Of a stretch of DNA of 32,000 bases, positions 3,486-25,217 are shown in pieces; position 1 is the first letter of the stretch; each line of letters opens with the position of its first letter. The position numbers were made by a program, and so were the translations under genes. This DNA is from Candidatus Nanosynbacter lyticus (GTDB taxonomy: Bacteria; Patescibacteriota; Saccharimonadia; Saccharimonadales; Saccharimonadaceae). The stretch is from the NCBI RefSeq assembly GCF_030253515.1, contig NZ_CP124549.1:90001-122000 (forward strand). Direction: 5' to 3'. The notes under the pieces were generated by a model. That model was not told the origin of the DNA and ran no database searches. It saw only the letters and a list, made by a program, of their open reading frames with translations.

Positions 3486-4295
3486 CTAACGTGCCGCCAG
3501 ATATTCACCAAGTAATGTTATTTTGTGCCCAGTTGAGGTGATTTTATTGATGGCACGCTGCAATGACGGGCCGGCAGCATCGACGGTCATAAAGAATTTG
3601 TAGTTCCACGGTTGGCCGACGATGGGCTGGGATTGGAGGCTGGTGAGGTTAATGGACTGATCGGCGAATGTGCGGAGTATTTCAAGGAGGCTGCCTGGCT
3701 GATGGGCGGTGGTCACTACGAGCGTTGCTCGATTGGCATCAGTCACTGTCGTTATCTGGTCGAGGACCAGGAAACGCGTGATGTTGTCCTGGGCATCTTG
3801 GATGTGGCGTTTAAGAATTGGCATATTGTATAGTTGGGCAGCGGCTTCGCTAGCGATGGCTGCCAGGTGTGGTGAACCCTGTTGCTTGATAAATTCGACA
3901 GCGCCAGCGGTATCAAAATATTCAATTTGTGTGGCTTGTGGCAGGCGTTCTTGGAGAAATTGATGGCATTGCGACAGAGCGACAGGATGTGAATAGACAG
4001 CGGTAATGTCTTCAAGTTTTGTGCCCAGATTGGTGATGAGTGTTTGTTGAATGGTAAGTGTTACTTCCCCGACGATGGGAGCACTGCAGGATTCAATGTG
4101 ACGGTAAGTTTCGTTGATGGTGCCGTAAATGGTATTTTCCACTGCCACGACAACGGCGTCGGCCTTACTGCGAGCATAGGTTTGAAAGACATCGCCAAAG
4201 GTCATGCACGGAACAATGGTGATGTCAGATCCATACCATTGTTTTGCCGCTTGTTCGTGAAATGACCCAGCTTGTCCTTGAATGGCGATACGCAT
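3486..4295 (-). CDS. pheA: Prephenate dehydratase (PDT catalytic domain plus C-terminal ACT domain)
   Basis: 269 aa. N-terminus MRIAIQGQAGSFHEQAA is typical of PDT. C-terminal ACT-like segment: ATLVVTTAHQPGSLLEILRTFADQSINLTSLQSQP...WNYKFFMTVD. Confidence 0.85.
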   Translation of the reverse strand: MRIAIQGQAGSFHEQAAKQWYGSDITIVPCMTFGDVFQTYARSKADAVVVAVENTIYGTINETYRHIESCSAPIVGEVTLTIQQTLITNLGTKLEDITAVYSHPVALSQCHQFLQERLPQATQIEYFDTAGAVEFIKQQGSPHLAAIASEAAAQLYNMPILKRHIQDAQDNITRFLVLDQITTVTDANRATLVVTTAHQPGSLLEILRTFADQSINLTSLQSQPIVGQPWNYKFFMTVDAAGPSLQRAINKITSTGHKITLLGEYLAAR

Positions 4296-4302
4296 GGACC
4301 CT

Positions 4303-4311
4303 ATTGTAGCA
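4303..4311 (-). promoter_or_regulatory. Extended -10 (TGCTACAAT on - strand) 7 nt upstream of the pheA ATG; implies a leaderless mRNA
   Basis: Reverse complement of 4303-4311 is TGCTACAAT. The ATG is the reverse complement of 4293-4295. No SD between them. Confidence 0.45.
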
Positions 4312-4332
4312 TGGTCTGGCGGGGTGCATCAC

Positions 4333-4361
4333 TGGACTTTTGCATTAGATTACCGTATAAT
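4333..4361 (+). promoter_or_regulatory. Promoter of the rpsF-ssb-rpsR operon (TGGACT-17-TATAAT)
   Basis: TGGACT 4333-4338, 17-nt spacer, TATAAT 4356-4361. Followed by a roughly 65-nt structured leader and AGGAGG before ATG 4432. Confidence 0.5.
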
Positions 4362-4431
4362 ACGGAGGAATAATAACCTAAGGTTATGTGCGATAACATA
4401 ACCATCCGTAATGGATTCCAAAGGAGGAAAC

Positions 4432-4791
4432 ATGAACGAATACGAACTGACTGTTCTTATTCACCCAGATTTGGAAGCAAATTTGGATACGGCCCTAGAC
4501 AAGGTCCGGTCGCTTGTCACTACCAATGGTGGCGAAATTACTAAAGAAGACAATTGGGGCAAGAAAAAGCTAGCCTATGCAATTCGTCGTGAAGACTTTG
4601 CGGTGTATGTTTACTTTGAGGTGAAGTTGCCAAGCAGTGCGCCGCTCAAGATATCAAATGTTCTGAATATCACCGACGAGGTGCTTCGTTATTTGTTGGT
4701 TAAGACCGACGAGAAGACACGTCGAGCGCTTGCTGAGCAGAAAGAGCGCGAAGCTAAGGTCGCTACCGAGGCGGCTGATAAAGAAGCCTAA
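4432..4791 (+). CDS. rpsF: 30S ribosomal protein S6
   Basis: MNEYELTVLIHPDL...NWGKKKLAYAIRREDFAVYVYFEV is typical S6. Start moved from the ORF-track 4411 to ATG 4432, which follows AAAGGAGG (4421-4428). Acidic/Lys-rich tail. Confidence 0.9.
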   Translation: MNEYELTVLIHPDLEANLDTALDKVRSLVTTNGGEITKEDNWGKKKLAYAIRREDFAVYVYFEVKLPSSAPLKISNVLNITDEVLRYLLVKTDEKTRRALAEQKEREAKVATEAADKEA

Positions 4792-4828
4792 TATTCGACG
4801 CGATACATAATAAAAAAGGAGGGTCATC

Positions 4829-5257
4829 ATGGCACGAAGTATCAACCAAGTTATTTTACTAGGGCGGTTAACGCGCGATCCAGAGCAGCGGACAACGCCA
4901 TCAGGTCGGACAGTTGTTAGCTTTAGTATCGCGGTTGATCGTGCCGGACAGGATGATCAAGCTGATTTTTTCGACGTTACCGCGTGGGAAAAATTGGGCG
5001 AACTGGTGATGCAGTACCTGTCAAAAGGCCGCCGCGTGTTGGTCCAGGGTCGGTTGCGACAGGACAGCTGGGATGATAAAGAAACCGGCAAGCGCCGCTC
5101 GCGTATTGAAGTGACGGCGACCGACGTAACATTCCTTGACGCTCCGAGCGGCGATAGCGCGAATACAACCGCACCACGTAATACTAATACCAAGCAGGCT
5201 GAGACCGTAGCGGATATTGACGATAAGCCGATCGATCTTAGCGAGATACCGTTCTAA
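4829..5257 (+). CDS. ssb: Single-stranded DNA-binding protein
   Basis: OB-fold N-terminus ([32 protein letters not shown]...[13 protein letters not shown]), disordered linker and C-terminal acidic tip DLSEIPF. SD AAGGAGGG lies upstream. Classic rpsF-ssb-rpsR synteny. Confidence 0.92.
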
Positions 5258-5268
5258 AGGAGAACAAA

Positions 5269-5472
5269 ATGGCAAAACGATTAAAGAAGGACACCCCAAC
5301 GGTTTTTGACTATAAGGATGTTAAAACATTAATGCGCTATGTTAATGCGTATGGTCAAATTGAGCCGATAGCGAAGACGGGTCTCAGTGTCAAGCAGCAG
5401 CGTAGCTTGGCAGTGGCAATCAAGCGTGCTCGGCACTTAGCATTGTTGCCGTTTGTATCGCAAGGGCAATAA
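5269..5472 (+). CDS. rpsR: 30S ribosomal protein S18
   Basis: 67 aa. [50 protein letters not shown] matches the S18 pattern. SD AAAGGAG lies upstream. Confidence 0.92.
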
Positions 5473-5534
5473 AAGTATACGTTGAGGGAACTCTCTAGCC
5501 CCCGAACGTATTTATAGATAAGAAAGAGAGTCGA

Positions 5535-5574
5535 GTGGTCTGTGCAGGGTAAGGCACGGGCCACTGTTGTTTGT
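5535..5574 (+). terminator. Candidate intrinsic terminator after rpsR
   Basis: 11-bp stem 5535-5545 / 5554-5564 (GUGGUCUGUGC / GCACGGGCCAC, two G-U pairs), 8-nt loop, then a U-rich UGUUGUUUGU tail. Confidence 0.45.
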
Positions 5575-5753
5575 GGACTGCTGTACAGCGTATTTTTATT
5601 TTTTGATACAAGATAGTATTATGTGATGCTACTAAGCCCACTGTGGGATGTTTGGGTAAAAAATATGTTCAGTCAGCGAGAAATACTCTGCCGTCCGAAA
5701 GAATGTTAGAATTAGGTACGGTAGCTTAATGGTTATAGGAAAGGAAAAACAAT

Positions 5754-6314
5754 ATGTATCAGCCGACAGATCTTAAAAAGGGTACGGTTTGTCAGATTGA
5801 CGGTAAGCCATACCGCGTCATTGAATATGGACAGAAGGTTATGGGGCGTGGAGGTTCTATTGTGAACGTTAAATTGAAAAACTTACTGGATGGAAGTGTC
5901 ATCCCGAAGACCTTTAAGGGTCAAGACAAAATTGAGCCAGCTGAAGTGGCTAGCAAGACTGTTCAATATTTATATCATGACGGAGATATCTTCTGCTTCA
6001 TGGATCCAGAAAGTTTTGAACAATTTGAATTGTCTAATGATGTGGTAGATGAGGCGAAAGATTATTTGAAAGAGGGTTGTGAGCTGAATCTCCAGGTGTT
6101 TGACGGGCGAGTGATTAATGTTGAATTACCAAAAAATCTCTATCTCGAAGTTACATATACCGAAGATGTCGTGAAGGGCGATACAACCTCAAGCGTACTT
6201 AAGGATGCAACGCTTGAGACGGGCCTCGTTATTAAGGTACCAGCATTCATTAAACAGGGCGATATTGTCAGTGTTGACACAGCGACGGGTGAATATCGAG
6301 AGCGCAAAAAATAA
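5754..6314 (+). CDS. efp: Elongation factor P
   Basis: 186 aa. DLKKGTVCQIDGKPYRVIEYGQKVMGRGGSIVNVKLKNLLDGSV and the three-domain length are typical EF-P. SD AGGAAAGGA lies upstream. Confidence 0.93.
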   Translation: MYQPTDLKKGTVCQIDGKPYRVIEYGQKVMGRGGSIVNVKLKNLLDGSVIPKTFKGQDKIEPAEVASKTVQYLYHDGDIFCFMDPESFEQFELSNDVVDEAKDYLKEGCELNLQVFDGRVINVELPKNLYLEVTYTEDVVKGDTTSSVLKDATLETGLVIKVPAFIKQGDIVSVDTATGEYRERKK

Positions 6315-6335
6315 CAAAAGGACCTTCTTGTCGGA

Positions 6336-6368
6336 AGCGTCGCCCAGAGTGTTCGGGCGACGCTTTTC
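6336..6368 (+). terminator. Rho-independent terminator of efp
   Basis: Perfect 10-bp GC-rich stem AGCGUCGCCC (6336-6345) / GGGCGACGCU (6355-6364), 9-nt loop, then UUU. Confidence 0.7.
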
Positions 6369-6720
6369 GTTGTTGTAACTACATCAAATAACGATAAAGA
6401 ATGGAACAAGATTTTAGATATTGATGCTAAAAATACAACGTAATAATATATATAGCTGGTAGAGTGTTTTTAGTGATACATATGATAATTGTTTTCATGA
6501 AAATTATGGGCCTATTCGCGATAATGGTGAGAGCCTTCTTGACTAGTACAGAGGTAAATATAACTATTGATGTATAAAGTACACTGATGTGTAGTATACA
6601 ACGTTGTATTTTAGTTAACGTAGAATTAACGATAGCGAAGATCGGCCTATAGGTAAGAGTAAGAATAATTATTGATGTATTTATAACAGCAGTTCTACTA
6701 TCACAATAGGTCACTAGTGA

Positions 6721-6749
6721 TTGAGAAAAATATGTATTCAGGCTACAAT
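6721..6749 (+). promoter_or_regulatory. Promoter TTGAGA-17-TACAAT, 10 nt upstream of the tlyA ATG (leaderless-type)
   Basis: TTGAGA 6721-6726, 17-nt spacer, TACAAT 6744-6749, ATG at 6760. No SD in between. Confidence 0.5.
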
Positions 6750-6759
6750 GAGAAGTGAC

Positions 6760-7530
6760 ATGAAGCAGCGATTAGATAAAATGATACTAGAACGCGGGTT
6801 GGTTGAATCGCGTTCAGAAGCAGAGAATTGGATAGGCTTAGGGCAAGTCATGGTCAATGGTAGGGTGGCGACGCGTCCCGGATGTTTCGTTAATGATACA
6901 GCAGACATTACATTGCTGACTCGTGAGCGGTACGTTTCGCGTGCAGGCCTCAAACTAGCGAGTGTGGCGGATAGTTTTCGGTTGGACTTTCAGGGGAAAA
7001 CAGTGCTGGACATAGGGTCGAGTACTGGTGGATTTACTGATTTTGCGCTGCGTCATGGCGCCCGACGCGTGTATGCTGTTGATGTGGGCACGAATCAGTT
7101 GCATCATCGACTGCGTGACGATCGGCGTATAATATTACACGAAAAGACAGACATTCGTGACTTTGAGCTTGATTGTCCACCAGACATTATCGTGGGAGAC
7201 GTGTCATTTATTAGTCTGCGCGACATTCTACCACACGTTGCAAAACGGCTGATGGGCAGTGCGACGGTGCTTGTAGCAATGGTAAAACCGCAGTTTGAGG
7301 CAGGGCGTCATTTGGTACAAAAGGGTGTTGTAAAAAATGCCGCTATACGACGAAAGATCCTGACCGATTTTGAGCAATGGGCAAAACAGTATTTTGTAGT
7401 TCTTGATAAAAAGGATAGCACCGTCGCTGGCAGTAAGGGTAACGTTGAGCGCTTCTATAAGCTACAGCTAAAAATAAACAGAGGTAATAACTGTAGTAAA
7501 AATAGCATCGTTGTATTTAGGGCAACGTAG
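6760..7530 (+). CDS. tlyA: TlyA-family 16S/23S rRNA (cytidine-2'-O)-methyltransferase (S4 domain plus FtsJ-like MTase)
   Basis: MKQRLDKMILERGLVESRSEAENWIGLGQVMVNG (S4-like), YVSRAGLKLASV, and the SAM-binding motif VLDIGSSTGGFTDFALRHGARRVYAVDVG. Start placed at ATG 6760, not the ORF-track TTG 6721, which coincides with the -35. Confidence 0.8.
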   Translation: MKQRLDKMILERGLVESRSEAENWIGLGQVMVNGRVATRPGCFVNDTADITLLTRERYVSRAGLKLASVADSFRLDFQGKTVLDIGSSTGGFTDFALRHGARRVYAVDVGTNQLHHRLRDDRRIILHEKTDIRDFELDCPPDIIVGDVSFISLRDILPHVAKRLMGSATVLVAMVKPQFEAGRHLVQKGVVKNAAIRRKILTDFEQWAKQYFVVLDKKDSTVAGSKGNVERFYKLQLKINRGNNCSKNSIVVFRAT

Positions 7531-7547
7531 TATACTATACAATAAGG

Positions 7548-8627
7548 CTAGACATTGAACCGAAATTCGACGACATCGTTAGGCTGCATGATGTAATTTT
7601 TACCCTCAGTACGTATTTTACCCGCTTCACGGGCCTTAGCTTCTGAACCTGCGGCAACAAGGTCGTGGTAGCTAATGACTTGTGCAGCGATGAATCCGCG
7701 CTCAAAGTCTGAGTGGATGACGCCAGCAGCCTGTGGCGCCGTCCAGCCTTTATGTATTGTCCATGCTCTAACTTCCTTCTGACCTGCCGTGAGATAGCTT
7801 TGTAGACCAAGTATGTCGTACGCGGCATGGATAAGCTGCGACAATCCAGTTTCGGAAGCCCCGTAGCTATCGAGCAGTTCCAAGGCGTCATTATTTGACA
7901 ATTCTCTGAGCTCTTCTTCAAGCTTGGCACAAATAAATAATACTCGAGCTGGCGCGACGAGTTTGGCAAGTTTTTCCTGTAGGACATGGTCGCCGAGCCC
8001 CGCCTCGTCAACATTAAATGTATAAATAATTGGCTTGGCAGTGAGTAAATGAAGATCATTAATTATCTCATATTTGATATTTTCTATGGATGCTATCGGC
8101 GTACCTGAATTAAGTGATGTCAGGAGTGTTTCAAGGTATGTAGCGACCTGTCGTGCCTCCGGCTTGGCTTTGGCTTCTTTTTGGAGACGAGGCAGACGAT
8201 GTTCTATGGTTTGGATGTCGGCAAGGATAAGTTCGGTATTGATGATGTCAATGTCGGCTTGAGGGTTAATCGGGGTATTGTCGTGTCGTAATATATCTGA
8301 GTTTTCAAAGGCGCGAACGATGTGGATAATGGCGTCGCATTCGCGAATATTGTGCAGGAATTTATTGCCAAGCCCTTCTCCTTTTGAGGCGCCAGCTACC
8401 AATCCAGCGATGTCGACGAACGTTACGGTCGCGGGGATAATTTTTTGCGTATCATACAGTTTTGCGAGTACATCGAGCCGCTCATCGGGAACCGGTACGA
8501 TGCCAGTATTCGGTTCAATGGTGGCAAACGGGTAATTAGCCGCTAGAATATTATTGTTAGTAAGTGCATTAAATATGGTCGACTTACCGACATTTGGCAG
8601 GCCGACGATTCCGATTGATAGACTCAT
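7548..8627 (-). CDS. ychF: Ribosome-binding ATPase YchF (Obg-family GTPase/ATPase)
   Basis: 359 aa. G1 motif GIVGLPNVGKSTIFNALT, FVDIAGLVAGASKGEGLGNKFL, C-terminal TGS-like domain (RAWTIHKGWTAPQAAGVIHSDFERGFIAAQVISY). Confidence 0.93.
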   Translation of the reverse strand: MSLSIGIVGLPNVGKSTIFNALTNNNILAANYPFATIEPNTGIVPVPDERLDVLAKLYDTQKIIPATVTFVDIAGLVAGASKGEGLGNKFLHNIRECDAIIHIVRAFENSDILRHDNTPINPQADIDIINTELILADIQTIEHRLPRLQKEAKAKPEARQVATYLETLLTSLNSGTPIASIENIKYEIINDLHLLTAKPIIYTFNVDEAGLGDHVLQEKLAKLVAPARVLFICAKLEEELRELSNNDALELLDSYGASETGLSQLIHAAYDILGLQSYLTAGQKEVRAWTIHKGWTAPQAAGVIHSDFERGFIAAQVISYHDLVAAGSEAKAREAGKIRTEGKNYIMQPNDVVEFRFNV

Positions 8628-8634
8628 ATCGTGT

Positions 8635-8643
8635 ATTATAACA
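8635..8643 (-). promoter_or_regulatory. Extended -10 (TGTTATAAT on - strand) 7 nt upstream of the ychF ATG (leaderless-type)
   Basis: Reverse complement of 8635-8643 is TGTTATAAT. The ATG is the reverse complement of 8625-8627. No SD. Confidence 0.45.
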
Positions 8644-8691
8644 AATTATACAAACTTGCCTCAGTATATAATATGTATTAGAATAAGCAGT

Positions 8692-9186
8692 ATGAATAAG
8701 ATTATTGTCTCGCGAATATTTATGATAGTGGGTATCGTGTTGAGTGTCGGGGCGATAGTCGCCGTTATCATGATGGTGATGGGGCGATTGCATGTTGGAT
8801 TAAAAGAGCCGAGCCAAGATATCGCGCCAACCGCTAAGATGATATGTGGCGAGGATATGATAAAAGAATATCAATCAATTATCGCTGCACCGAATGGGTA
8901 TGGTCCGACAGCGCTTGAGGGGCTGGTGAAGAAGATTTCAGAGCGTGGCGGCCCGGGTGACGATACGGTGTGTCACTATATTGTGCTTCACGATGCATCA
9001 CTACGGAATGATCGCCAGCGGATTGATCAGATTCATCAAGGGTTGATCAACTCAATGAAGATGCGCCAGGCGGTCGAGCCGTTTTATCGACTGGGTATTA
9101 ATCAGGATACGGTAAAGGCACTGGTCGAGATCGGTAAGGCTGATGCGGGTGCGGGGAATAAGGATGGTACACCGGGTCAGGGCTAG
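8692..9186 (+). CDS. Hypothetical membrane-anchored protein (single N-terminal TM helix)
   Basis: ATG 8692 gives MNKIIVSRIFMIVGIVLSVGAIVAVIMMVMG... (TM anchor) and a 130-aa soluble part with 2 Cys. The ORF-track start 8554 would overlap ychF and was rejected. No family motif recognised. Confidence 0.55.
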   Translation: MNKIIVSRIFMIVGIVLSVGAIVAVIMMVMGRLHVGLKEPSQDIAPTAKMICGEDMIKEYQSIIAAPNGYGPTALEGLVKKISERGGPGDDTVCHYIVLHDASLRNDRQRIDQIHQGLINSMKMRQAVEPFYRLGINQDTVKALVEIGKADAGAGNKDGTPGQG

Positions 9187-10822
9187 GGTCGGACTGCGGC
9201 TCATTATTGGCTATATGCTGGCACTTGTGGTTGTCGCATCGACGTTGGTGATTATTGGTGCGGATAAAGCAGAGGCGGTGGACTGTAGCGGTTTGAGCGG
9301 TCGACGACATTTGATGTGTATTAATGCGCGCAATGATGGTGAACGGTTTGCGGTGCAATATATCTGTAAGGGCGGCGGAACGCGGTGCGGTGCGATGTGG
9401 ATGTCGTCGCCTGGGACGTCGTATACGAATGATGTTATTAACACTGCTAGCTGGAATGCGACGTCATTATCACTCGACTTGAGGGGGTCGGTGAATGGTA
9501 ATGGCCAGTCGCAGGCGCGGGTGTGGGCGACAAATGTAACGGTTAGTCAGAATGGTCGGACATTAGTATCTGGCGGTACGCTTGATCGTGGGACGCATCC
9601 ATCGGGCGCGTACCACTGGGTTGATGGCGGTAGCAGCATTCGAGTAAATGGGATTGATATATCTGGCGTAATTGCACCAGGAAGTTCCGGCCGTATCATT
9701 TTGCAGGTGCGGCGCTGTTTCTATAGTAGTCCAGGCGGTAGCGGTGTTTGTGCGACACAAGATGTTGAGGTGTGGATTAAGCGTGAGCAGGCGCCAAACC
9801 AATGGACTGTCGAAGGACAATCGCGAGTATCAATCAATGGTGGTAGTTTAGTGCAAAACGCGACCGCTGCGCCAGGACAGCGCGTACGATTTTTTCATTA
9901 TCTACGGAATAATTCTTCATATACGATTCCTCCCTACACCCTAAAGCGCATAGGAATTAATCAGGATGTTAATGGTACGACAACGCATCACGCGTGGGCG
10001 TCGCCGTATACGCATAGTGCTAGTCCGTGGAATACGTTTTATGAGCCGAGCGATGTTAAGCCATATAATAATGTCTTTGGGGCTGAGGGGATCGTGACGC
10101 AGGATGATGTCGGTAAAACAGTGTGTCAAAAGATTTTATGGCTGCCGGGCGCGTGGAATACTGATGGCTGGGGGGTCTCATCGAATGCCTGTGCGTCGGT
10201 GCCGTATGACTATGAGTTGCGACCTGAAGTGCAGGCGCCAGATTATATTAATGAAGGAACGATTGAGGTGAGTGGCGTGACTGCGCGAATTAATCATACA
10301 GGATCGACACGGTCAAATCGGGCAAATTATGCTGTGGTGCGGTTTGTGTTAAGGGGCGGTGGAAATTATACCGTGCCAGGCGGTGAGGGAGTTGTTGTGC
10401 CGTATGATAGACGTTCGCCAGGTAATTTAGTGGGCGATTGGGATTGTTATATCGCCAAGAACACGATTAAAAATAGTCGACCAGGTTTACAAGTGGCAGA
10501 TTGTACATCAAATAATTTGGCACGTAATGGCGCGGGAACAATTATCCAGCGAGGTGGGCTGGAAATTCCGCTCGGTAAGGATAATTTGAGTGGAGTGACG
10601 ATGACGACTGGTGACCAGTTGTGTTATATGACTATTGTGAGTACATACAACCAACATGTGAATACCAGTACGTTTCGCTATGCGGTAGACTGTGCAAAGG
10701 TTGCCGGACGGCCAAAAGTTCAGTTTTGGGGGGCGGATGTGCGAGTTGGTGTCGGGATAGACGGTAGTGCGGGTAACAATAATGCGGAAGTCAGGACATC
10801 ACTGACGAGGGTGAGGCGATAG
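9143..10822 (+). CDS. Hypothetical secreted/surface protein, Cys-rich (12 Cys), N-terminal signal or anchor
   Basis: 559 aa. N-terminus ...MVHRVRARVGLRLIIGYMLALVVVASTLVIIGADKAEA has a basic n-region, hydrophobic core and AxA. The exact start is uncertain (9143 or 9164). The ectodomain is rich in G/N/S/T/V with recurring GxxxC and C..VPYDY-type segments. No named family recognised. Confidence 0.6.
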   Translation: MRVRGIRMVHRVRARVGLRLIIGYMLALVVVASTLVIIGADKAEAVDCSGLSGRRHLMCINARNDGERFAVQYICKGGGTRCGAMWMSSPGTSYTNDVINTASWNATSLSLDLRGSVNGNGQSQARVWATNVTVSQNGRTLVSGGTLDRGTHPSGAYHWVDGGSSIRVNGIDISGVIAPGSSGRIILQVRRCFYSSPGGSGVCATQDVEVWIKREQAPNQWTVEGQSRVSINGGSLVQNATAAPGQRVRFFHYLRNNSSYTIPPYTLKRIGINQDVNGTTTHHAWASPYTHSASPWNTFYEPSDVKPYNNVFGAEGIVTQDDVGKTVCQKILWLPGAWNTDGWGVSSNACASVPYDYELRPEVQAPDYINEGTIEVSGVTARINHTGSTRSNRANYAVVRFVLRGGGNYTVPGGEGVVVPYDRRSPGNLVGDWDCYIAKNTIKNSRPGLQVADCTSNNLARNGAGTIIQRGGLEIPLGKDNLSGVTMTTGDQLCYMTIVSTYNQHVNTSTFRYAVDCAKVAGRPKVQFWGADVRVGVGIDGSAGNNNAEVRTSLTRVRR

Positions 10823-12832
10823 ATGGCGCTGCAGTTAAAAACCCACAGGTGGTGGATCGGGGTTGGTACCGTTGGGTTAGTGGTATTCGGAAGCCTTGGA
10901 GTGTATATCTGGCGTCATTATATCAGCGTGACGGCGCAAGTAGCGCCTGACGTAACTCACGTCGAGAGGGTGGTGCTAGCAGCAAGTACGACAACGCCAC
11001 CGGGCGGCAGTAGTTATGGCCCAGCCACGTCATATCACATGCCATGGGAGAAATATCCGGTTGGCGAGAGAGAGCAGATCGGCGGAACGCCAGAACGGAT
11101 TAGTAGTTGGCCAACGGCCGGGGATGGTGGATCTGACTGTCGTGTGAACGCAAATGCTACGACAGTGGTCGATGGTATTGGCGGGACGTTTAATTATGGT
11201 GGGTTTACGATGATGCCAACACCGATGTCTGGTAATCGGACAGTCGGTCAGGATAAATGTAGCGGATCGGTGTCAGCATGGACGGCACCGGACGGTGAAA
11301 ATAGCACGTCTTCGGCAACGCCAGCACCGAGTTGGTTTGACGATGTGGTAGCGGCCAATAGCGGTGGTCGAGCGGGTGGAGCATATGTTAATCCACGAGC
11401 GTATGGTGGCTGGGCGACGGATGCTAATGCCACGACGAAAGTACCATTTGGTGTACCTGCCCAGCGATCGGGCGTGACTGGGGCGGCTGAGTTTGCCGAA
11501 TGCGGCGGGGTTGCCAAGGAATCGGGGACATCGGCGTGGGCGACTGACGGGGCTTTTCGGCAGTCAATGTATGATCAAGGCGGCCAATCAAAGCCGCTCT
11601 GGGGCGCGCGCTGTAAGGACGAGACAAAGTTGAAAGAGGTGCTGACTCGGCGTCATAATGCGCCGCAAGCTGATACCAACGGTGGAAATTACGTGAAGTC
11701 GTCTGGTATAACACTATTTCGGCAGAAATTCCGGCTGACGAGCCAGCAGCTTGAAGAGATTCGCCAGCTGGATTTATTGAACGACGGACGATCGGGATTA
11801 TACTTGCGTTTGGCGGTTGATGATTATGCTGCGGTATACATTAATGGCAAGCCAGTCTTTGCCAATCCGAAAGCGTCGTCTGGTGTCGAGATGAAGAGAA
11901 TCATCGCGGATTATTTACGGGCTGGTGATAATGTGATTGCTCTAGAGGTGCAAGATGCGATTGCTCCAACTAGCCTCGCCAATGCTAATGCGGCTGCTCG
12001 GTGGCTGCTCGGTGTGTATGCGCCAAAGGGGTGGCAGCCAGTGCCAGGGGAGCCGCGGCTATACGGATCGTGGGCAGAATATGCCATCAGTGCGCCTGGA
12101 CAAATTATTTCCTCTTCGGGAGCAGGACTATCATCTACGCCGACAGGGCGAACGGGGGCGATTGAGGCACGGCAATATAATGATCTGACGTTTCAGAACA
12201 CTAACACCCCGTTTGGTAATTTCCGTGACAAGATGCCGACCGTGCGAACACCTGATGCCTATTTTACGAACACGGGAAATTTGTCTGGGGCGGTGTCTAT
12301 GAGCGACGTGGCTAGTGGCGTGTATCAGGCTGGCAATCTGACAATTACCGGAGGAGAAATTAAGCGTGGCCGGCAAATTGTTATCAAATCGGGCGGCGTG
12401 GTGACTATCAAGGGTGACGTAAAGCAGGAGGGCGGTAACTATTCGGCGGCTCGAGATTTGCCACAGCTGATTATCAGCGCTCGGCATATTATCATTGAGC
12501 CGAATGTCACGCAGCTTGATGCTTGGCTGGTGGCCAAGAATGGTACAATCAATACCTGTGATACCATAGTTCGTGATAGTCGTCAGTGGCTGTTGGGGCT
12601 GGATGCAAAAACCTGCGAAAAACAGCTGCGGATCAACGGTCCGATTATCGCGAAGCACCTCTTTTTGCGTCGTACCTTTACCAAGGGTGGCGATACCTCT
12701 GGCAATAATCCGGGCGAGCCGGCGGAAATATTGAATTTGCGTGCTGATGCATATTTGTGGGGAAATGAGCGGTCGAAAGAATCGGGGGCTATCAAAACGA
12801 TGCATCTAAAAGAGCTACCGCCACGATTTTAA
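10823..12832 (+). CDS. Hypothetical membrane-anchored surface protein with a jelly-roll-like (galactose-binding-like) segment and a repetitive beta-rich C-terminus
   Basis: 669 aa. The ATG directly abuts the upstream TAG, with the SD GAGGGTGAGG inside the upstream gene. N-terminal TM: WWIGVGTVGLVVFGSLGVYIW. Segment LYLRLAVDDYAAVYINGKPVF...YLRAGDNVIALEVQD resembles sugar-binding jelly-roll domains. C-terminus: GNLTITGGEIKRGRQIVIKSGGVVTIKGDV. 6 Cys. Confidence 0.65.
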   Translation: MALQLKTHRWWIGVGTVGLVVFGSLGVYIWRHYISVTAQVAPDVTHVERVVLAASTTTPPGGSSYGPATSYHMPWEKYPVGEREQIGGTPERISSWPTAGDGGSDCRVNANATTVVDGIGGTFNYGGFTMMPTPMSGNRTVGQDKCSGSVSAWTAPDGENSTSSATPAPSWFDDVVAANSGGRAGGAYVNPRAYGGWATDANATTKVPFGVPAQRSGVTGAAEFAECGGVAKESGTSAWATDGAFRQSMYDQGGQSKPLWGARCKDETKLKEVLTRRHNAPQADTNGGNYVKSSGITLFRQKFRLTSQQLEEIRQLDLLNDGRSGLYLRLAVDDYAAVYINGKPVFANPKASSGVEMKRIIADYLRAGDNVIALEVQDAIAPTSLANANAAARWLLGVYAPKGWQPVPGEPRLYGSWAEYAISAPGQIISSSGAGLSSTPTGRTGAIEARQYNDLTFQNTNTPFGNFRDKMPTVRTPDAYFTNTGNLSGAVSMSDVASGVYQAGNLTITGGEIKRGRQIVIKSGGVVTIKGDVKQEGGNYSAARDLPQLIISARHIIIEPNVTQLDAWLVAKNGTINTCDTIVRDSRQWLLGLDAKTCEKQLRINGPIIAKHLFLRRTFTKGGDTSGNNPGEPAEILNLRADAYLWGNERSKESGAIKTMHLKELPPRF

Positions 12833-12836
12833 GGGT

Positions 12837-12864
12837 TTTACATTTCAATATGCTTATGTATAAT
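12837..12864 (+). promoter_or_regulatory. Promoter TTTACA-16-TATAAT, 8 nt upstream of the pilM ATG (leaderless-type)
   Basis: TTTACA 12837-12842, TATAAT 12859-12864, ATG 12873. The intervening AGAATAGT has no SD. Confidence 0.5.
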
Positions 12865-12872
12865 AGAATAGT

Positions 12873-13919
12873 ATGAAATTAGCTAAAGGGCTGGGCGACT
12901 TTTTCGGATTAGACATCGGGACGAATGCGGTGCGTGTCGTTCAGTTGGCACGAACGAGCAACGGATGGAATCTGCTGCACTATGGTTATGCACCTGTTGA
13001 CCCGAAGGTTACGGGTAGTGATTCGCCAGAGGCGCAGCGTAAGCTTGGTGAAGTGATCATGACTGCTGTCGGACAGAGCGGTATCAAGACGCAAAATGTA
13101 GCGATTGGACTACCGTCGAGCAAGACCTTTACGGCGATTATTGATGTGCCAAAAGTGTCAGACCAAGAGCTAAAGGCGACCATGAAATACCAGGTCGATC
13201 AGTACATTCCTATGGCGATTGAGGATGCCAAGGTTGATTGGGCGCTGCTCGGTGACAGTTTGCGCGAGCAAGGCCAGTATGAGGTGTTATTGACGAGTGC
13301 AGCGATTAGCTATGTCGAGGAGCGGCTTGAGTTCATCGAAGGTCTTGGCTTTAATGTGGTTGCTGAGGAGCCGGATCCGATCGCGATGCTTCGGGCATTA
13401 GCGCCGACTGATGGAGCGACCGCAAAGTTAGTACTAGATATGGGCGAACACTCGACCGATTTGGCGGTCATTTATGGCGATATGCCGCGGTTAGTGCGCA
13501 CGGTGCCGAGCGGATTGCAGGCGTTGGTGCGAGCGGCGGTGCAAAATCTCAACGTGCAGGATGATCAGGCTCGCCAGTTTATTATCAAGTTTGGTTTGGC
13601 GCCTGACCGGCTTGAAGGGCAAGTCCTCAGGGCGATTGACGGCGTGCTGGATAACTTTGCGACCGAGCTGACCAAATCAATCAAGTTCTTTCAGACGCGC
13701 TATCCGAGTATTTCCGTGTCAGGAATTCTGCTGTCAGGCTTTGGCGCGGCGATACCGATGATGGATAATTATATTGCTAGCAAGACCGGCATACCGGCGA
13801 CTACGGCTGATCCGTGGCAGCATGTCAGCCTTGGGCAGGCCGATCAGCAAAAATTAGCACCAATTGCCTCGGAGTTTGCGACGGTTGTTGGTCTAGCGCA
13901 GCGGAGGAGTGGGTCGTGA
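12873..13919 (+). CDS. pilM: Type IV pilus assembly protein PilM (actin-like ATPase fold)
   Basis: 348 aa. N-terminal GLDIGTNAVRVVQL (actin/HSP70 phosphate-1-like), LVLDMGEHSTDLAVI. Position is directly upstream of pilN with a GTGA overlap. Confidence 0.88.
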   Translation: MKLAKGLGDFFGLDIGTNAVRVVQLARTSNGWNLLHYGYAPVDPKVTGSDSPEAQRKLGEVIMTAVGQSGIKTQNVAIGLPSSKTFTAIIDVPKVSDQELKATMKYQVDQYIPMAIEDAKVDWALLGDSLREQGQYEVLLTSAAISYVEERLEFIEGLGFNVVAEEPDPIAMLRALAPTDGATAKLVLDMGEHSTDLAVIYGDMPRLVRTVPSGLQALVRAAVQNLNVQDDQARQFIIKFGLAPDRLEGQVLRAIDGVLDNFATELTKSIKFFQTRYPSISVSGILLSGFGAAIPMMDNYIASKTGIPATTADPWQHVSLGQADQQKLAPIASEFATVVGLAQRRSGS

Positions 13920-14647: not shown

Positions 14648-15324
14648 TGCCTGAAAATAAAGACGTTGCCATCCGTAAGCGCCAGCAGATTGATTCATCA
14701 AAGAAAACCATGTTTCTGTTCGTGGCGGGTGCGGCATTTGTTAGCGGGGTAGCGATTGTGGTGTCGTTCTTCCTCGTGCGGCAGATTTTGTTTCATGGCG
14801 CAGTTGTCCTTGCGAAGCAAGACACCATCAACACACTGGAGAATAATAAAAAGGCGGCCGAGTCGCTCAAAGATAATGTGCGTTCACTAGAGGCGAATGA
14901 GGCGCTTAACTCAGTGAAGTTAAAGGATAGTAGTAGTCCATTGCAGACGATTCTTGATGCACTGCCGGCTAGTGCGAATGCCGATGCGCTTGGTGCATCC
15001 ATCCAGAAGAAGTTCGTTAATGGCATCGCCGGTCTGTCACTAGAAAGTATCTCGGTCCACTATACGGCGAATGAGTCGGGTGCGGAGCAAGAGGACGCTG
15101 GTGATGGTCGCTCGGCGGTGAGTTTTACCATGACAGTGAGCGGCACGTCATCGAGCCTCAAGGAGCTATTGACGCGCTTTGAAAAATCAATTCGGGTTAT
15201 CAATATTACCGAGATCGAGATGCAGGCCAGCGAGGACGGCAAGATGACGATGGATATCTCTGGCAAGGCTTATTTTGAGCCGGCGCAAAAAGTTGGATTA
15301 GGAAAGAAGGTGATCAAGCCATGA
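14647..15324 (+). CDS. pilO: PilO-like type IV pilus assembly protein (bitopic, coiled-coil plus C-terminal domain)
   Basis: 225 aa. TAATG overlap with pilN. Short cytoplasmic N-terminus, TM helix MFLFVAGAAFVSGVAIVVSFFLV, predicted coiled-coil (NTLENNKKAAESLKDNVRSLEANEAL). Assigned mainly by architecture and position. Confidence 0.55.
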   Translation: MPENKDVAIRKRQQIDSSKKTMFLFVAGAAFVSGVAIVVSFFLVRQILFHGAVVLAKQDTINTLENNKKAAESLKDNVRSLEANEALNSVKLKDSSSPLQTILDALPASANADALGASIQKKFVNGIAGLSLESISVHYTANESGAEQEDAGDGRSAVSFTMTVSGTSSSLKELLTRFEKSIRVINITEIEMQASEDGKMTMDISGKAYFEPAQKVGLGKKVIKP

Positions 15325-15551
15325 AGAAGAGCGATATAGCAATGATTGTGTTGATAGCCAGTCTCGGCGTTGTAGTGGCATATTTCGTTGCCAGTAGTAT
15401 TCCGTTCTTGCGCGTACCATCATCGGGTGTAGAAGTACAGACGATATCAAAAATTAGTCCAGATATTGAGCAGCCGGATAAGGCAGTGTTTCATCGCGAT
15501 GCTATTAACCCAACGGTGGAAGCAATTGTTGGTAAAGCGACTGGTAGTTAG
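15321..15551 (+). CDS. Small single-pass membrane protein of unknown function inside the pilus operon
   Basis: 76 aa. ATGA overlap with the pilO-like gene. TM helix IAMIVLIASLGVVVAYFVASSI. Ends 12 nt before pilB. Confidence 0.5.
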   Translation: MKKSDIAMIVLIASLGVVVAYFVASSIPFLRVPSSGVEVQTISKISPDIEQPDKAVFHRDAINPTVEAIVGKATGS

Positions 15552-19657: not shown

Positions 19658-19696
19658 AGCAAGAGAAAGTTAAGTCACAGAAAGGTGGGCAACTTC

Positions 19697-22424: not shown

Positions 22425-23142
22425 ACGATATGGGTTTACCTTGGTTGAGCTGATGCTGGCGATGGCATTCGTGTCGGTGTTGCTACTGGCGATTGCTACG
22501 ATAGCAATCCAGGCCGGCAAGCTGTATAATCGAGGCCTCACGCTCAAAAGTATCAATCAGTCCGGCCGCGAAATTAGCGATAGCTTGCGGCGTGACTTTT
22601 TGCAGGCTAATGCTGGCAAGATAAGTGGTAATGCTAATTCGGCCGTTGTCATGGTGCAGGCGGGTGGTGCTGATCGGAGCGGCCGACTCTGCCTCGGTGA
22701 CTATTCATATGTCTGGAATGTGCCAAAGGTTGTCTCTGGAGAAGTGAAGGCCGGTGCGGGTATTATTACCGAAGTTGGTGGGCCGCATTCTGGTCGTCCG
22801 ATTAATTTTGCTCGAGTGATTGACCCAGATGGTATGCTGTGCCAGAAAAATGAAACAACGGGGGCGTACATGTCAACAGTCGCGACGGATAAAGTGACAC
22901 ATCTTCTCAAGCCAGCCGGGTCGAATGATGTGGTGCTGGCAATTCATCAAATGAAAGCAGCGCGAGTGGCGGGTGATAGCGGGGCAGACAGTCTGTATCG
23001 TTTGGAATTTGTCCTTGGAACCAGTCAGCTTGAGGCAGTTAACACCGCTAATGGCACCTGTAAGCCACCGGCGGATAACAGTGAGAATCTCGACTTTTGC
23101 GCGATAAATAGTTTTGAGATGATTGTGAGGACAAATGGATAA
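22408..23142 (+). CDS. Pilin-like protein with class III signal (minor pilin)
   Basis: MTRRYRRYG|FTLVELMLAMAFVSVLLLAIATIAI (Gly-1, Phe+1, Glu+5). 244 aa, 4 Cys. Overlaps both neighbouring genes. Confidence 0.8.
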   Translation: MTRRYRRYGFTLVELMLAMAFVSVLLLAIATIAIQAGKLYNRGLTLKSINQSGREISDSLRRDFLQANAGKISGNANSAVVMVQAGGADRSGRLCLGDYSYVWNVPKVVSGEVKAGAGIITEVGGPHSGRPINFARVIDPDGMLCQKNETTGAYMSTVATDKVTHLLKPAGSNDVVLAIHQMKAARVAGDSGADSLYRLEFVLGTSQLEAVNTANGTCKPPADNSENLDFCAINSFEMIVRTNG

Positions 23143-24289
23143 AATAGCGAGAAATAATCAATCAGGTGCGGTGTCGTTATTTGCAGTGATCTTTGCGACA
23201 CTGTTACTAACGGTTTTGATGCTCGGCTTCATGCGGCTCATAATGGTTGATCAGCGACAGGCCCTGAACAATGAGCTGTCACAAAGTGCGTATGATGCAG
23301 CCCTGTCCGGTGTTGAAGACGCCAAGCGAGTCGTGCGTGCCTGTCAAAAAGGAGATAACGGTGGCAAGGCTTGCGAACAGTTACGACTGCCTGATGACTG
23401 TAAAGTGGTCGCACGTGCGGGCGTTGCCGGTAATGTGGCCGCTAACGAGACGCTGATTCAGTCACGTCGCTCAGGGGATGGTAAAGAGTTCAACCAAGCC
23501 TATACCTGCGTCAACATCACGATGGACACGGAAGATTTCCTGGTTAGCATACCCGAAGGATCATCTCGTTTGGTGCCGCTGAAAGCCAAATCTGAATTTA
23601 ATAAAATTGTCCTCGAGTGGTTTACTAAAGAGGACGCGAACGGCAACGTGGCTGCTGGACGAGTAAAAAATGCTGCCTCCGTATCAACTTCGCTGCCGGC
23701 ATACAGTGACTGGGATGAGTCGCCGTCTCGTCCTGCACCCGCGCTACTGCGCACTCAGATGATTTTTCCAGGCGATACATTCGACCTTGCTAGTCTTGAT
23801 AGCTCTCGTGTTGCGACAATGTTCCTTTATCCACGGACGCTGAGTGTCCCCGGACCGACGAACGGAGGTGTATCGGCAATTAATCTACCGCGAGCGGGCG
23901 GTGGTGGGCAATTTAATAATGCTCCGACACCGGTGAGCTGTTCTCCGGATTTTGCGAATAGTGGTTATTCGTGCCGAGTCACAATTGATATATCACCTGT
24001 TACGGCTGCCGCCAGCGTTAATTCATTCTTGCGTCTGACGCCGCTATATCGCATGTCACACGTGCGAATTGCCCTATATAATGGTGCAGAACCGGTTAAA
24101 TTTGATGGTGTTCAGCCAGCGGTTGATGCAACTGGTCGTGCTAGTAATGTATTTCGGCGGGTTGAGGCGCGCCTTCAGATAGGTGACGACTTCCCGTATC
24201 CTGAAAATGCTATTGATCTTGAGAATAGCCTCTGTAAAGACTTTTCGGTGACCGAGGGTAGTGTGACACCGGGTAATTGTCGACCGTAG
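23135..24289 (+). CDS. PilX-like pilus-associated protein (PilX_N-type N-terminus, large Cys-rich C-terminal domain)
   Basis: MDKIARNNQSGAVSLFAVIFATLLLTVLMLGFMRLIMVDQRQALNNELSQSAYDAALSGVEDA resembles the PilX N-terminal domain (hydrophobic helix, no Glu+5). 384 aa, 8 Cys. Last gene of the pilus cluster. Confidence 0.6.
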   Translation: MDKIARNNQSGAVSLFAVIFATLLLTVLMLGFMRLIMVDQRQALNNELSQSAYDAALSGVEDAKRVVRACQKGDNGGKACEQLRLPDDCKVVARAGVAGNVAANETLIQSRRSGDGKEFNQAYTCVNITMDTEDFLVSIPEGSSRLVPLKAKSEFNKIVLEWFTKEDANGNVAAGRVKNAASVSTSLPAYSDWDESPSRPAPALLRTQMIFPGDTFDLASLDSSRVATMFLYPRTLSVPGPTNGGVSAINLPRAGGGGQFNNAPTPVSCSPDFANSGYSCRVTIDISPVTAAASVNSFLRLTPLYRMSHVRIALYNGAEPVKFDGVQPAVDATGRASNVFRRVEARLQIGDDFPYPENAIDLENSLCKDFSVTEGSVTPGNCRP

Positions 24290-24296
24290 CATGAAC

Positions 24297-25217
24297 CTAT
24301 CTGGTGTCACTGTGAAAGCGCTCGTGGACATCTTTGAGGTGCTGGTCGGTGACGTGTGTGTAAATCTGAGTCGTGGCAATATTGCTGTGGCCAAGCATTG
24401 ATTGTACCGCCCGCAGGTCTGCTCCATTCATCAGAAGGTCGGTTGCAAAGCTATGGCGCATAGTGTGCGGGCTAACGTGTTTGGTGATGCCAGCAAGCCG
24501 GGCGTAGTGTGATACCATCCGCTGGATCGAGCGAGCACTCAGCCGACGATAATCGCCGGAAACTGATGGTTTTGTTAGGCGCCTGCTATAGCTGATAAAT
24601 AGAGCCGGTAGGCTGTCACTGCGCGAATCAAGGTAGTTTTTGACATGCTCAGCAGCGGACATCGAGACAAATACCGGCCGGTCTTTCTGGCCCTTACCGC
24701 GCACCATAAACTCGCGTCGAGCGAGATTGATGTGGTCACGATTCAGGTTAACAAGCTCTGACACGCGCAGTCCGCTTGAAAACAAAAGCTCAATAATTGC
24801 GCGGTCGCGAAGGCCTGGTTCATTGTCCAATGGGATCTGCTCGATGAGCCGTACCACCTCGTCGTAGTGGAGAAATGTGACTTGTTTGCGAACGGTTTTT
24901 GGTAGGATGATCTTGTCGGCTGCCAGCGATGGAATATCTCGTTGTGATAAATACGTCAATAATCCACGTAGGGCAATTAAGTGGTAATTTTGTGTAATTA
25001 ACAACAATTCTTCACCGGTGTTGCTATTTTTATAACGGTTTAACCAGAGGCGATACTTACGAATTGTCTCTGATGTTATTTTTGCAACATCAATATCACC
25101 AGCAAAATCAATGAAGCGCTCAAGGTATAATTTGTAGTTCTCAATGGTGCGCGGACTGCGACCACCTTCAACTTCGAGATGTTCTAGGAAATCTGCTAAT
25201 GCTTCTGAGAGATACAT
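24297..25217 (-). CDS. xerC: Site-specific tyrosine recombinase, XerC/XerD family
   Basis: 306 aa. N-terminal SAM-like core-binding domain (FLEHLEVEGGRSPRTIENYKLYL). Catalytic motifs ..SGLRVSELVNL.., HTMRHSFATDLLMNGADLRAVQSMLGHSNIATTQIYTHV. XerC versus XerD cannot be distinguished by eye. Confidence 0.85.
   Translation of the reverse strand: MYLSEALADFLEHLEVEGGRSPRTIENYKLYLERFIDFAGDIDVAKITSETIRKYRLWLNRYKNSNTGEELLLITQNYHLIALRGLLTYLSQRDIPSLAADKIILPKTVRKQVTFLHYDEVVRLIEQIPLDNEPGLRDRAIIELLFSSGLRVSELVNLNRDHINLARREFMVRGKGQKDRPVFVSMSAAEHVKNYLDSRSDSLPALFISYSRRLTKPSVSGDYRRLSARSIQRMVSHYARLAGITKHVSPHTMRHSFATDLLMNGADLRAVQSMLGHSNIATTQIYTHVTDQHLKDVHERFHSDTR

Follow-up and report, generated by a model that had tools for sequence, protein, structure and literature searches.

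The stretch of DNA analyzed here (32,000 nucleotides (nt), positions 1-32000, hereafter called the window) contains three intact, coupled open reading frames (ORFs), which lie between ychF on the upstream and pilM, the first gene of a type IV pilus operon, on the downstream side. An earlier note on this DNA had described them as three co-directional genes of uncharacterized envelope proteins, with the same coordinates and lengths as found here:

ORF1, 8692..9186, plus strand: small partner, 164 amino acids (aa), from the ORF list and hydropathy
ORF2, 9143..10822, plus strand: N-terminal half of a split large secreted protein, 559 aa, alternative start at 9164
ORF3, 10823..12832, plus strand: C-terminal half of the split large protein, 669 aa
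pilM, 12873..13919, plus strand: first gene of a T4P-1-type operon, from a Pfam match to PilM_2 (1.4e-37) and the downstream genes

After pilM, the type IV pilus operon, which is complete, continues with a pilN-like gene, pilO, an ORF of 76 aa, pilB, pilT, pilC, a pilin gene, pilD, and minor pilin genes. Since it includes pilT, it corresponds to the locus named T4P-1 in Nanosynbacter lyticus TM7x (PMC12206443).

Hydropathy analysis revealed a hydrophobic N-terminus in each of the three proteins. ORF1, ORF2, and ORF3 contain 2, 12, and 6 Cys, respectively, and the five downstream pilin-like ORFs contain 2, 4, 2, 4, and 8, which bears out the even Cys counts pointed out previously; PilM, PilN, and PilO contain 0 Cys. 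The reported 44-nt overlap between ORF1 and ORF2 is correct for an ORF2 start at the ATG at 9143. NCBI/GenBank versions of ORF2 (98%-identical proteins), however, comprise 552 or 535 aa, corresponding to starts at 9164 or 9215, so that the overlap may be 23 nt or none.

Searches of ORF1-3 against Pfam, NCBIfam, PHROGs, and PADLOC yielded no family above threshold, in agreement with the earlier note, which had been unable to assign any. The same applies to sequence and profile searches of the PDB, which gave no meaningful match for the three ORFs when either the single proteins or the alignments A4 and A5 were used. A phage or defence origin of ORF1-3 was rejected, as neither PHROGs nor PADLOC contained a match above threshold. 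ORF2 is 98% identical to QHU91825.1 of Saccharibacteria oral taxon 488 and ORF3 falls into a 97%-identical cluster including QJU07195.1, both of which are annotated as 'hypothetical protein'. Annotations at 97-98% identity name Candidatus Saccharibacteria bacterium oral taxon 488 and Nanogingivalaceae, and the complete genome CP128407.1 has the same locus (L012). An adhesin had been considered attractive in the earlier note if the organism were an epibiont; judged by these 97-98% identical proteins, it is Saccharibacteria oral taxon 488, which is an epibiont.

Fission of a large secreted protein

ORF2 and the last 260 aa of ORF3 are two halves of a protein that is a single chain in relatives. 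The homologues of ORF3 that were found first shared only its last ~260 residues, while their N-terminal parts resemble ORF2. In BLASTP searches, ORF2 residues 312-556 align with residues 280-517 of the 780-aa relative P0006 (E=3e-47), and ORF3 residues 410-669 align with the part of P0006 that directly follows this stretch. The middle domain of ORF2 was also matched in the loci L002 (protein L002_713), L004, L017 (L017_1168), L019, L023, L029, and L071. ORF2 ends a few residues past the conserved RPKVQFWGADVR…TS.T, and the conserved part of ORF3 starts with YGSWAEY, which is the next element in the single-chain relatives. Fused ORFs of 784-1168 aa are present at the same locus in L017, L019, L029, L053, and L071, with small and large genes of 172 and 1168 aa in L017, 199 and 1119 aa in L019, and 162 and 784 aa in L071, and two Nanosynbacter genomes encode a fused large protein of 978 and 991 aa. 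Nanosynbacter genomes such as TM7-008 have this ~990-aa gene right before pilM, and TM7x presumably has a counterpart. In the window, ORF2 and ORF3 form one reading frame with a single TAG between them. The consecutive alignment to single proteins, the fused ORFs at the locus, and the shared frame mean that the block arose by gene fission and consists of one split gene plus a small partner gene, and not of three unrelated proteins. The window clade is thus a fission variant, in which the two family domains are located on two ORFs and not on one polypeptide. Two features mark the place of the split:

Fission junction, 10807..10825, plus strand: Shine-Dalgarno (SD) sequence GAGGGTGAGG (10807-10816), CGA, the ORF2 stop TAG (10820-10822), and the ORF3 start ATG (10823), all in frame
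ORF3 signal/anchor gained after the fission, 10823..10936, plus strand: residues 1-38 from hydropathy, with predicted cleavage at VTA/QVAP

The TAG-ATG junction with an SD sequence inside the upstream gene had already been noticed and is confirmed, to which the shared frame of ORF2 and ORF3 is now added. It is kept in nine of nine clade genomes examined (L007-L010, L012-L016), and the split is common to L007-L016 and L001. L001, which is 57-65% identical, carries the same SD, GGTGAGG, but there the junction is composed of TGA, one spacer base (T), and an ATG in another frame. The N-terminus of ORF3 is basic and then hydrophobic, and its 'AQVAP' motif is kept in P0001-P0003. No hydrophobic segment follows the N-terminal signal of the fused protein L017_1168. 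When ORF3 was aligned globally with this protein, the first ~130 residues of ORF3 lay almost wholly opposite gaps.

Ratios of nonsynonymous to synonymous substitutions (dN/dS, Nei-Gojobori method) were calculated for the window against nine related genomes. They amounted to 0.09-0.20 for ORF1, 0.04-0.14 for residues 1-310 of ORF2, 0-0.06 for its middle domain, 0.08-0.13 for residues 1-409 of ORF3, and 0.01-0.07 for its C-terminal domain, with values of mostly 0.01-0.03 for pilM and pilB. All segments of ORF1-3 are under purifying selection, and the ORFs are real genes. These data bear on the possibility that read-through of the TAG joins ORF2 and ORF3 into one polypeptide, or that the split represents a decaying pseudogene, for which the common frame with only a TAG in between and the existence of relatives with a fused gene might speak. 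However, the split is also present in L001, but with TGA and a one-base frame shift, SD and ATG are conserved around the stop, ORF3 starts with a hydrophobic signal not found in the fused relatives, and the stop is kept throughout the clade genomes, the complete CP128407.1 among them. In addition, dN/dS is at most 0.14 for both halves in the nine genomes. A decaying pseudogene is incompatible with purifying selection acting on every part, and such selection also speaks against simple read-through. For this reason, and because the split in L001 is out of frame, this explanation was rejected and is considered highly improbable.

Domain structure, protein family, and small partner

The two halves of the large protein comprise the following regions:

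ORF2 Sec-type signal/anchor, 9143..9277, plus strand: residues 1-45 with a basic n-region, a hydrophobic core at 19-40, and predicted cleavage at AEA/VD
Conserved middle domain, 10076..10810, plus strand: ORF2 residues 312-556, beta-sandwich with three conserved Cys pairs, ending in RPKVQFWGADVR
Clade-specific region, 10937..11692, plus strand: ORF3 residues 39-290, rich in Gly, Ser, Thr, and aromatic residues
Putative galactose-binding-like jelly-roll module, 11693..12049, plus strand: ORF3 residues 291-409, at the variable hinge of the family
Family-defining C-terminal domain, 12050..12832, plus strand: ORF3 residues 410-669

Membership in one protein family follows from the middle domain of ORF2, which contains …DVGK.CQ…VPY.Y.L.P…N.G.T.S…CY…KRPKVQFWG.DVR, and from the C-terminal domain of ORF3, which contains YGSWAEY…SGAGLS…PAE..NLR.D… with a terminal E-L-P-P-R-[FYL]. 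The order of elements within ORF3 residues 410-669, with invariant columns, is YGSWAEY...SGAGLS...LTF.N, a putative beta-solenoid, one Cys pair, PAEILNLR.D, and the C-terminal ELPPRF.

An AlphaFold model of ORF2 (predicted local distance difference test score, pLDDT, of 68) shows an N-terminal helix, a small helical region, and three beta-sandwich regions. Foldseek searches with this model matched proteins with multiple immunoglobulin (Ig)-like domains, namely the MG domains of alpha-2-macroglobulin, CfaB, ICAM-5, antigen I/II, and Cpe0147; the low template modelling (TM) scores (0.1-0.25) imply that this resemblance is only that of a generic Ig-like stalk. The ORF3 model, calculated from a 9-sequence alignment, has a mean pLDDT of 37 and is usable only at residues ~481-620, of which residues ~481-600 consist entirely of short strands at a pLDDT of 75-91. 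Its top Foldseek match is the beta-solenoid of ComZ (E=0.046, prob 0.97), followed by an ice-binding protein (E=0.16), while the solenoids of tailspike, bactofilin, and pectate lyase rank lower and none of the matches reaches 1e-3. The authors of the ComZ structure found the closest fold to its solenoid in ice-binding proteins (PMC6561018), so that both top matches point, if weakly, to one fold class. A sequence match of ORF3 to the ice-binding-like DUF3494 was found neither in Pfam at E<=1 nor by sequence and profile searches of the PDB. The beta-helix that the earlier note had guessed for the C-terminal part of ORF3 hence agrees with the only confident part of the model and with the kind of structures that rank highest in Foldseek, although none of these matches is significant.

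The region upstream of this domain differs between lineages. Residues 39-290 of ORF3 have an AlphaFold pLDDT of about 22 and no similarity outside the window clade and L001/P0002/P0003. For the adjacent segment, Pfam searches gave Glyco_hydro_2_N matches with E=0.006 (16.9 bits) for the whole of ORF3 and E=0.0004 (20.7 bits) for the isolated segment, as well as E=0.039 (14.3 bits) and E=0.11 (12.9 bits) for the orthologues P0002 and P0003, all of which (12.9-20.7 bits) lie below the Pfam gathering cut-off of 28 bits for this domain. NCBIfam also yielded a weak LacZ match for ORF3. The recurrence of the match in three orthologues makes the galactose-binding-like fold suggested in the earlier note plausible, although at sub-threshold scores it is not established. 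A segment resembling 'L.L.VDD…INg…I.IEV' was found ahead of the C-terminal domain in the inserts of L017 and L018 by global alignment and motif search, whereas BLAST of ORF3 residues 1-412 against the inserts of fused relatives and other lineages yielded no similarity. In the 17 loci that lack a hinge insert, the middle and C-terminal domains are <=60 nt apart, compared to 600-1000 nt in another 49 loci and >1000 nt in a further 11. Insert content differs between lineages, with the one of L028 being different again, and Pfam searches of the inserts of L017, L019, L029, and L028 gave nothing useful. The hinge between the two conserved domains is lineage-variable, and the fission site of the window clade is exactly this hinge.

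A word-indexed homology search, which returned 5-9 relatives per protein, had given the impression of a rare family. This was corrected by an exhaustive profile search, which found at least 5,282 cluster representatives (50% identity) at E<=1e-3, and 2,408 at E<=1e-30. Family members are typically 750-800 and up to about 1,300 aa long, and 127 of 144 representatives end in E-x-x-P-R-[FYL]. Full-length orthologues of ORF3 were found by the word-indexed search only in the window clade and in P0002/P0003 (65-66% identity), while identity over ORF3 residues 410-669 is 43-65% to L001, L002, L004, and L017-L085, and 44-58% in related genome loci that do not belong to the window clade. The 80 genome loci retrieved are all from Saccharibacteria. 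A look-up of names for family members found none, Pfam searches with eight long relatives gave only weak matches to CARDB, DUF7507, and Peptidase_M73, and literature searches (TM7x_00410; PilY1 or beta-solenoid/DUF3494 with Saccharibacteria) yielded no description of these large proteins. The family is unnamed, essentially restricted to Saccharibacteria, and belongs to no curated family.

N-termini were read for ~60 relatives, nearly all of which start with ordinary Sec-type signals and not with prepilin signals. In line with this, ORF1-3 gave no match to N_methyl, the class III prepilin signal, whereas the window ORFs at 19685 and 22408 do match. Several Cys columns are nearly invariant in the family alignment. 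Sec-type N-terminal signals and conserved Cys pairs indicate that the large protein is exported, and the impression of exported, disulfide-bonded proteins conveyed by the earlier note is supported to this extent at the level of sequence. A C-terminal LPXTG motif, hydrophobic segment, or basic tail was not found; the protein ends in ...ELPPRF, and no membrane segment is present there.

The small partner, ORF1, consists of an N-terminal transmembrane helix followed by about 130 aa with two invariant Cys (C52, C94). Homologues of ORF1 precede the large gene in L001, L002, L018, L019, and L071, and alignment A6 groups the small ORFs of L023 and L057 with this type, C52 and C94 being invariant. A different small gene, for a tetratricopeptide repeat (TPR) protein with a transmembrane helix, is found in L002 (second pair), L004, L017, and L089, and the protein of L089 passes the cut-offs of TPR_8 and TPR_21. 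Pfam searches gave no TPR match in ORF1 or ORF1-type partners, and homology between the ORF1 type and the TPR type was not demonstrated (hhalign probability 9.8%). In L001, L002, L004, L071, and L089, the small gene overlaps or directly adjoins the large one. In a distant subfamily that is not adjacent to pilM (L111, L107, L129, L097, L144, L087), an unannotated ORF of 270-375 aa without a Pfam match regularly lies just before the large gene; it may be a larger counterpart of the small partner.

Linkage to pilM

The position of the large gene directly before pilM is conserved. Of the 80 genome loci retrieved, 79 had enough downstream sequence to judge pilM adjacency, and in 77 of these pilM starts 41-49 nt past the stop of the large gene, the corresponding gap in the window being 40 nt. 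In the remaining two, L028 and L085, the gene appears to be a second copy located elsewhere in the genome. The paralogue in L085 (1086 aa; L085 1836-6804) lies two ORFs downstream of a sortase-domain gene, although no LPXTG is found in the family. A metagenome scan seeded with the most distant member yielded a further 28 pilM-adjacent loci, in which PilM is 61-71% identical and several of which have tandem duplicates. In the environmental relative L089 (715-2267), a Peptidase_M78/DUF4411 pair takes the place of ychF in the upstream flank, and still the linkage of small gene, large gene, and pilM is retained. Several lineages (L002, at 3868-9127, L103, L153, L162, and L163) have the large gene twice in tandem before pilM; the duplicated pair of L002 comprises 171, 713, 182, and 672 aa, each large copy having its own small partner.

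Upstream of pilM and of the module, two sites were found:

pilM promoter, 12837..12864, plus strand: TTTACA-16-TATAAT with TG as extended -10, 11/12 positions matching the consensus, ending 8 nt before the ATG
Promoter-like site of the module, 8656..8684, plus strand: TTGCCT-17-TAGAAT, 9/12 positions matching the consensus (weak evidence), with the -10 ending 7 nt before the ORF1 ATG

Both boxes of the pilM promoter (-35 and aTGTATAAT, the latter 8-9 nt before the pilM ATG) are common to 14 diverse loci (the window, L001, L002, L004, L014, L017-L019, L023, L029, L053, L057, L071, and L089). No SD sequence is present between the -10 box and the ATG. This suggests that the mRNA of the T4P-1 operon is leaderless or near-leaderless across Saccharibacteria. 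The promoter-like site of the module lies in the AT-rich stretch of 64 nt that separates ORF1 from the divergently oriented ychF, and its geometry is like that of the pilM site. With a promoter conserved in 14 diverse loci located in the 40-nt gap, the view of the earlier note that the module is joined to the front of the pilus operon is weakened. As no terminator-like site follows ORF3, some read-through into pilM is possible.

Further observations concern the operon and its surroundings. The 76-aa ORF between pilO and pilB (15321-15551) encodes one hydrophobic helix and has no Pfam match. A 76-aa gene is present at the same position in L001, L002, and L089, and the small gene at this position in Southlakia, SEML1_0107, is essential in the published transposon sequencing (Tn-seq) table. 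The minor-pilin cluster ends with an ORF of 384 aa (23135-24289) that has 8 Cys, a hydrophobic N-terminus, and no N_methyl match, and which, judged by its position, may be the counterpart of PilX1 of TM7x. A gene for a XerC/XerD-type tyrosine recombinase (24297-25217, minus strand; Phage_integrase 2.6e-43) directly follows the pilin cluster, and ndk and tRNA-Arg come next. GC skew is positive in every 1-kb step of the window (0.06-0.30), and nearly all long ORFs are on the plus strand.

Proposed function and known systems

The analysis bears on how Saccharibacteria recognize their bacterial hosts and stay attached to them. In the TM7x study, close-proximity adhesins that act after T4P-1 twitching were proposed and left unidentified, and the gene upstream of pilM1 was not considered (PMC12206443); the pilus-gene analysis starts at pilM in both the TM7x and the Southlakia publications. 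The large protein might be such a factor. We tentatively propose, as a reading that is possible although it falls somewhat short of being probable, that it is a disulfide-bonded modular surface adhesin or lectin which, with its small membrane partner, acts alongside the retractile T4P-1. The block would then be a two-component envelope module, seen here as three ORFs. ORF1, with its single membrane-spanning helix and translational coupling, may serve as a membrane-side chaperone or anchor of the large protein. The latter would be built from a signal peptide, an Ig-like/CARDB-like beta-sandwich stalk, the middle domain, the hinge, and a triangular beta-solenoid ending in ELPPRF, with the hinge taking up lineage-specific binding cassettes, in the window presumably the clade-specific region and the galactose-binding-like jelly-roll. 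In the oral taxon 488 clade, fission at the hinge was accompanied by the acquisition of a signal peptide and a coupled restart (SD-TAG-ATG) by the downstream half. Its own signal peptide and restart lead us to propose that both halves are exported separately, and they might reassemble outside the cell. The fission pattern is consistent with both halves working there. The adhesin would come into play together with T4P-1 after the epibiont has been drawn onto its host, with the conserved C-terminal domain docking to the cell or the pilus apparatus and the variable parts contacting the host surface.

Several observations weigh against this proposal. The small partner is not present at the Nanosynbacter loci, the lectin-like and beta-solenoid assignments are below significance, and the model of ORF3 is poor. 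For TM7x T4P-1, a PilY1-like role has already been proposed for PilX1 (PMC12206443). The order rpsF-ssb-rpsR-efp-tlyA-ychF-X-pilM is conserved across Saccharibacteria genomes, and as the order of a whole neighborhood is conserved in these small genomes, adjacency alone is weak evidence of a shared function. pilM very probably has its own, near-leaderless transcription start, and the conservation of its promoter implies that the module is probably transcribed separately. In the same metagenome scan, 47 loci of the distant subfamily had unrelated neighbors (fpg, a gene for a DHH protein, truB, glmS). In Southlakia epibionticum, of which most T4P1 genes are essential, ychF (SEML1_0103) is directly followed by pilM (SEML1_0104), and the published supplementary tables show no family member at this ychF-pilM site, which is the only site to which this finding applies. 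The family is therefore not obligatorily linked to pili, and the synteny with pilus genes expected in the earlier note holds for the orthologous subfamily (77 of 79 genome loci and the 28 metagenome loci), but neither for the distant subfamily nor at the Southlakia site.

Some of these observations would also be expected if the large protein were a general surface protein, e.g., an S-layer-like, wall-associated lectin, or nutrient-binding protein, and its adjacency to pilM merely an inherited gene order. The whole neighborhood is frozen, including plainly unrelated genes, the module and pilM have separate promoters, the distant subfamily is scattered, the L085 paralogue is found near a sortase gene, and the family is very large and essentially limited to Saccharibacteria. 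Nevertheless, the linkage to pilM survives the replacement of the upstream flank in L089 as well as tandem duplication, and it holds at PilM identities down to about 61%. We regard this explanation as only somewhat less likely than the adhesin proposal.

The opposite possibility is an accessory structural role of the large protein within the T4P-1 machine of these single-membrane cells, as a wall-spanning guide, a pilus-priming or a tip factor. The protein would dock via the conserved beta-solenoid like PilY1/PilC or the ComZ tip receptor, and possibly bind DNA for uptake. The very stable position right before pilM, a C-terminal domain as constrained as PilM and PilB (dN/dS of 0.01-0.07), the pilus-tip beta-solenoid of ComZ as best structural match, and the layout of a large non-pilin, Sec-exported protein that is variable towards its N-terminus and conserved towards its C-terminus, as in PilY1, are all in line with this assumption. 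However, neither a prepilin signal nor a PilY1/PilC domain is present, the gene is not encoded among the minor pilins, pilM has a separate promoter, paralogues lie far from pilus genes, and Southlakia, in which most T4P1 genes are essential, lacks the gene at this site. Furthermore, the match to ComZ lacks significance and goes back to a generic solenoid of the ice-binding-like type. A direct structural role in the pilus machine appears unlikely. We consider it similarly improbable that the gene before pilM is an unrecognized host-range part of the essential T4P-1, namely a secreted protein whose conserved solenoid attaches it to the cell or pilus apparatus and whose hinge cassettes are exchanged from lineage to lineage to fit different host surfaces, and which has become two-subunit in taxon 488 through fission and a newly evolved signal peptide; if so, the cassettes at the fixed hinge would be a jelly-roll lectin, other folds, or none.

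Irrespective of the mode of action, a large unnamed family of exported proteins is defined here, which is encoded directly before the T4P-1 operon in most sampled lineages and has a lineage-variable slot that may be used for binding. In the taxon 488 clade, it provides a clean natural gene fission, after which the downstream fragment gained a signal peptide and a coupled restart. As strains can be manipulated by natural transformation, the family represents a concrete target for knock-outs. With the nearly constant place of its closest subfamily right before pilM, this family is a candidate host-contact factor, and the main value of the analysis lies in providing a concrete, testable candidate for host contact in Saccharibacteria.

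Among known systems, the small partner can be compared to membrane-anchored TPR proteins of the YfgM type (TPR_21). In size, position, and N-terminal transmembrane helix, ORF1 is alike to the TPR-type partners, but it has no TPR match and two invariant Cys instead. The jelly-roll segment can be compared to the galactose-binding-like domain of glycoside hydrolase family 2 (GH2), to which the weak Glyco_hydro_2_N matches at the same segment in three orthologues point. In contrast to GH2 enzymes, no catalytic GH2 domains are present, and AlphaFold gave no confident fold for ORF3 residues 291-409.

ComZ of Thermus thermophilus (PDB 6QVI), a pilus-tip DNA receptor, matched the confident part of ORF3 over 169 aligned columns, and both proteins are tied to type IV pilus loci. 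Apart from the missing significance of this match, there is no sequence similarity, and while ComZ has a pilin-like domain that inserts into the fiber, members of the large-protein family carry an ordinary signal peptide and lack a pilin fold. For ORF2, Gram-positive Ig-stalk adhesins (C-terminal domains of antigen I/II, Cpe0147), Fn3 of C5a peptidase, the pilin subunit CfaB, and CARDB were among the Foldseek matches or weak hits. The likeness lies in an exported stalk followed by binding modules, and one relative has a weak CARDB match. It is limited by the generic TM-scores, the lack of an LPXTG motif, and the lack of a Pfam family above threshold.

PilY1 combines a variable N-terminal with a conserved C-terminal part. 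Like PilY1/PilC of Pseudomonas, Neisseria, and Myxococcus, the large protein is a large Sec-exported non-pilin encoded at a type IV pilus locus, with a conserved C-terminal domain and a remainder that varies between lineages. It differs from these proteins in that Pfam/NCBIfam searches (E<=1) found no PilY1/PilC beta-propeller domain, its C-terminal domain being modelled as a short-strand beta-solenoid, and in that its gene is located upstream of pilM with a separate promoter and not among the minor pilins. While falling outside both groups by these features, the large protein would, by analogy, appear to work most like a PilY1/PilC-type non-pilin or a modular Gram-positive adhesin.

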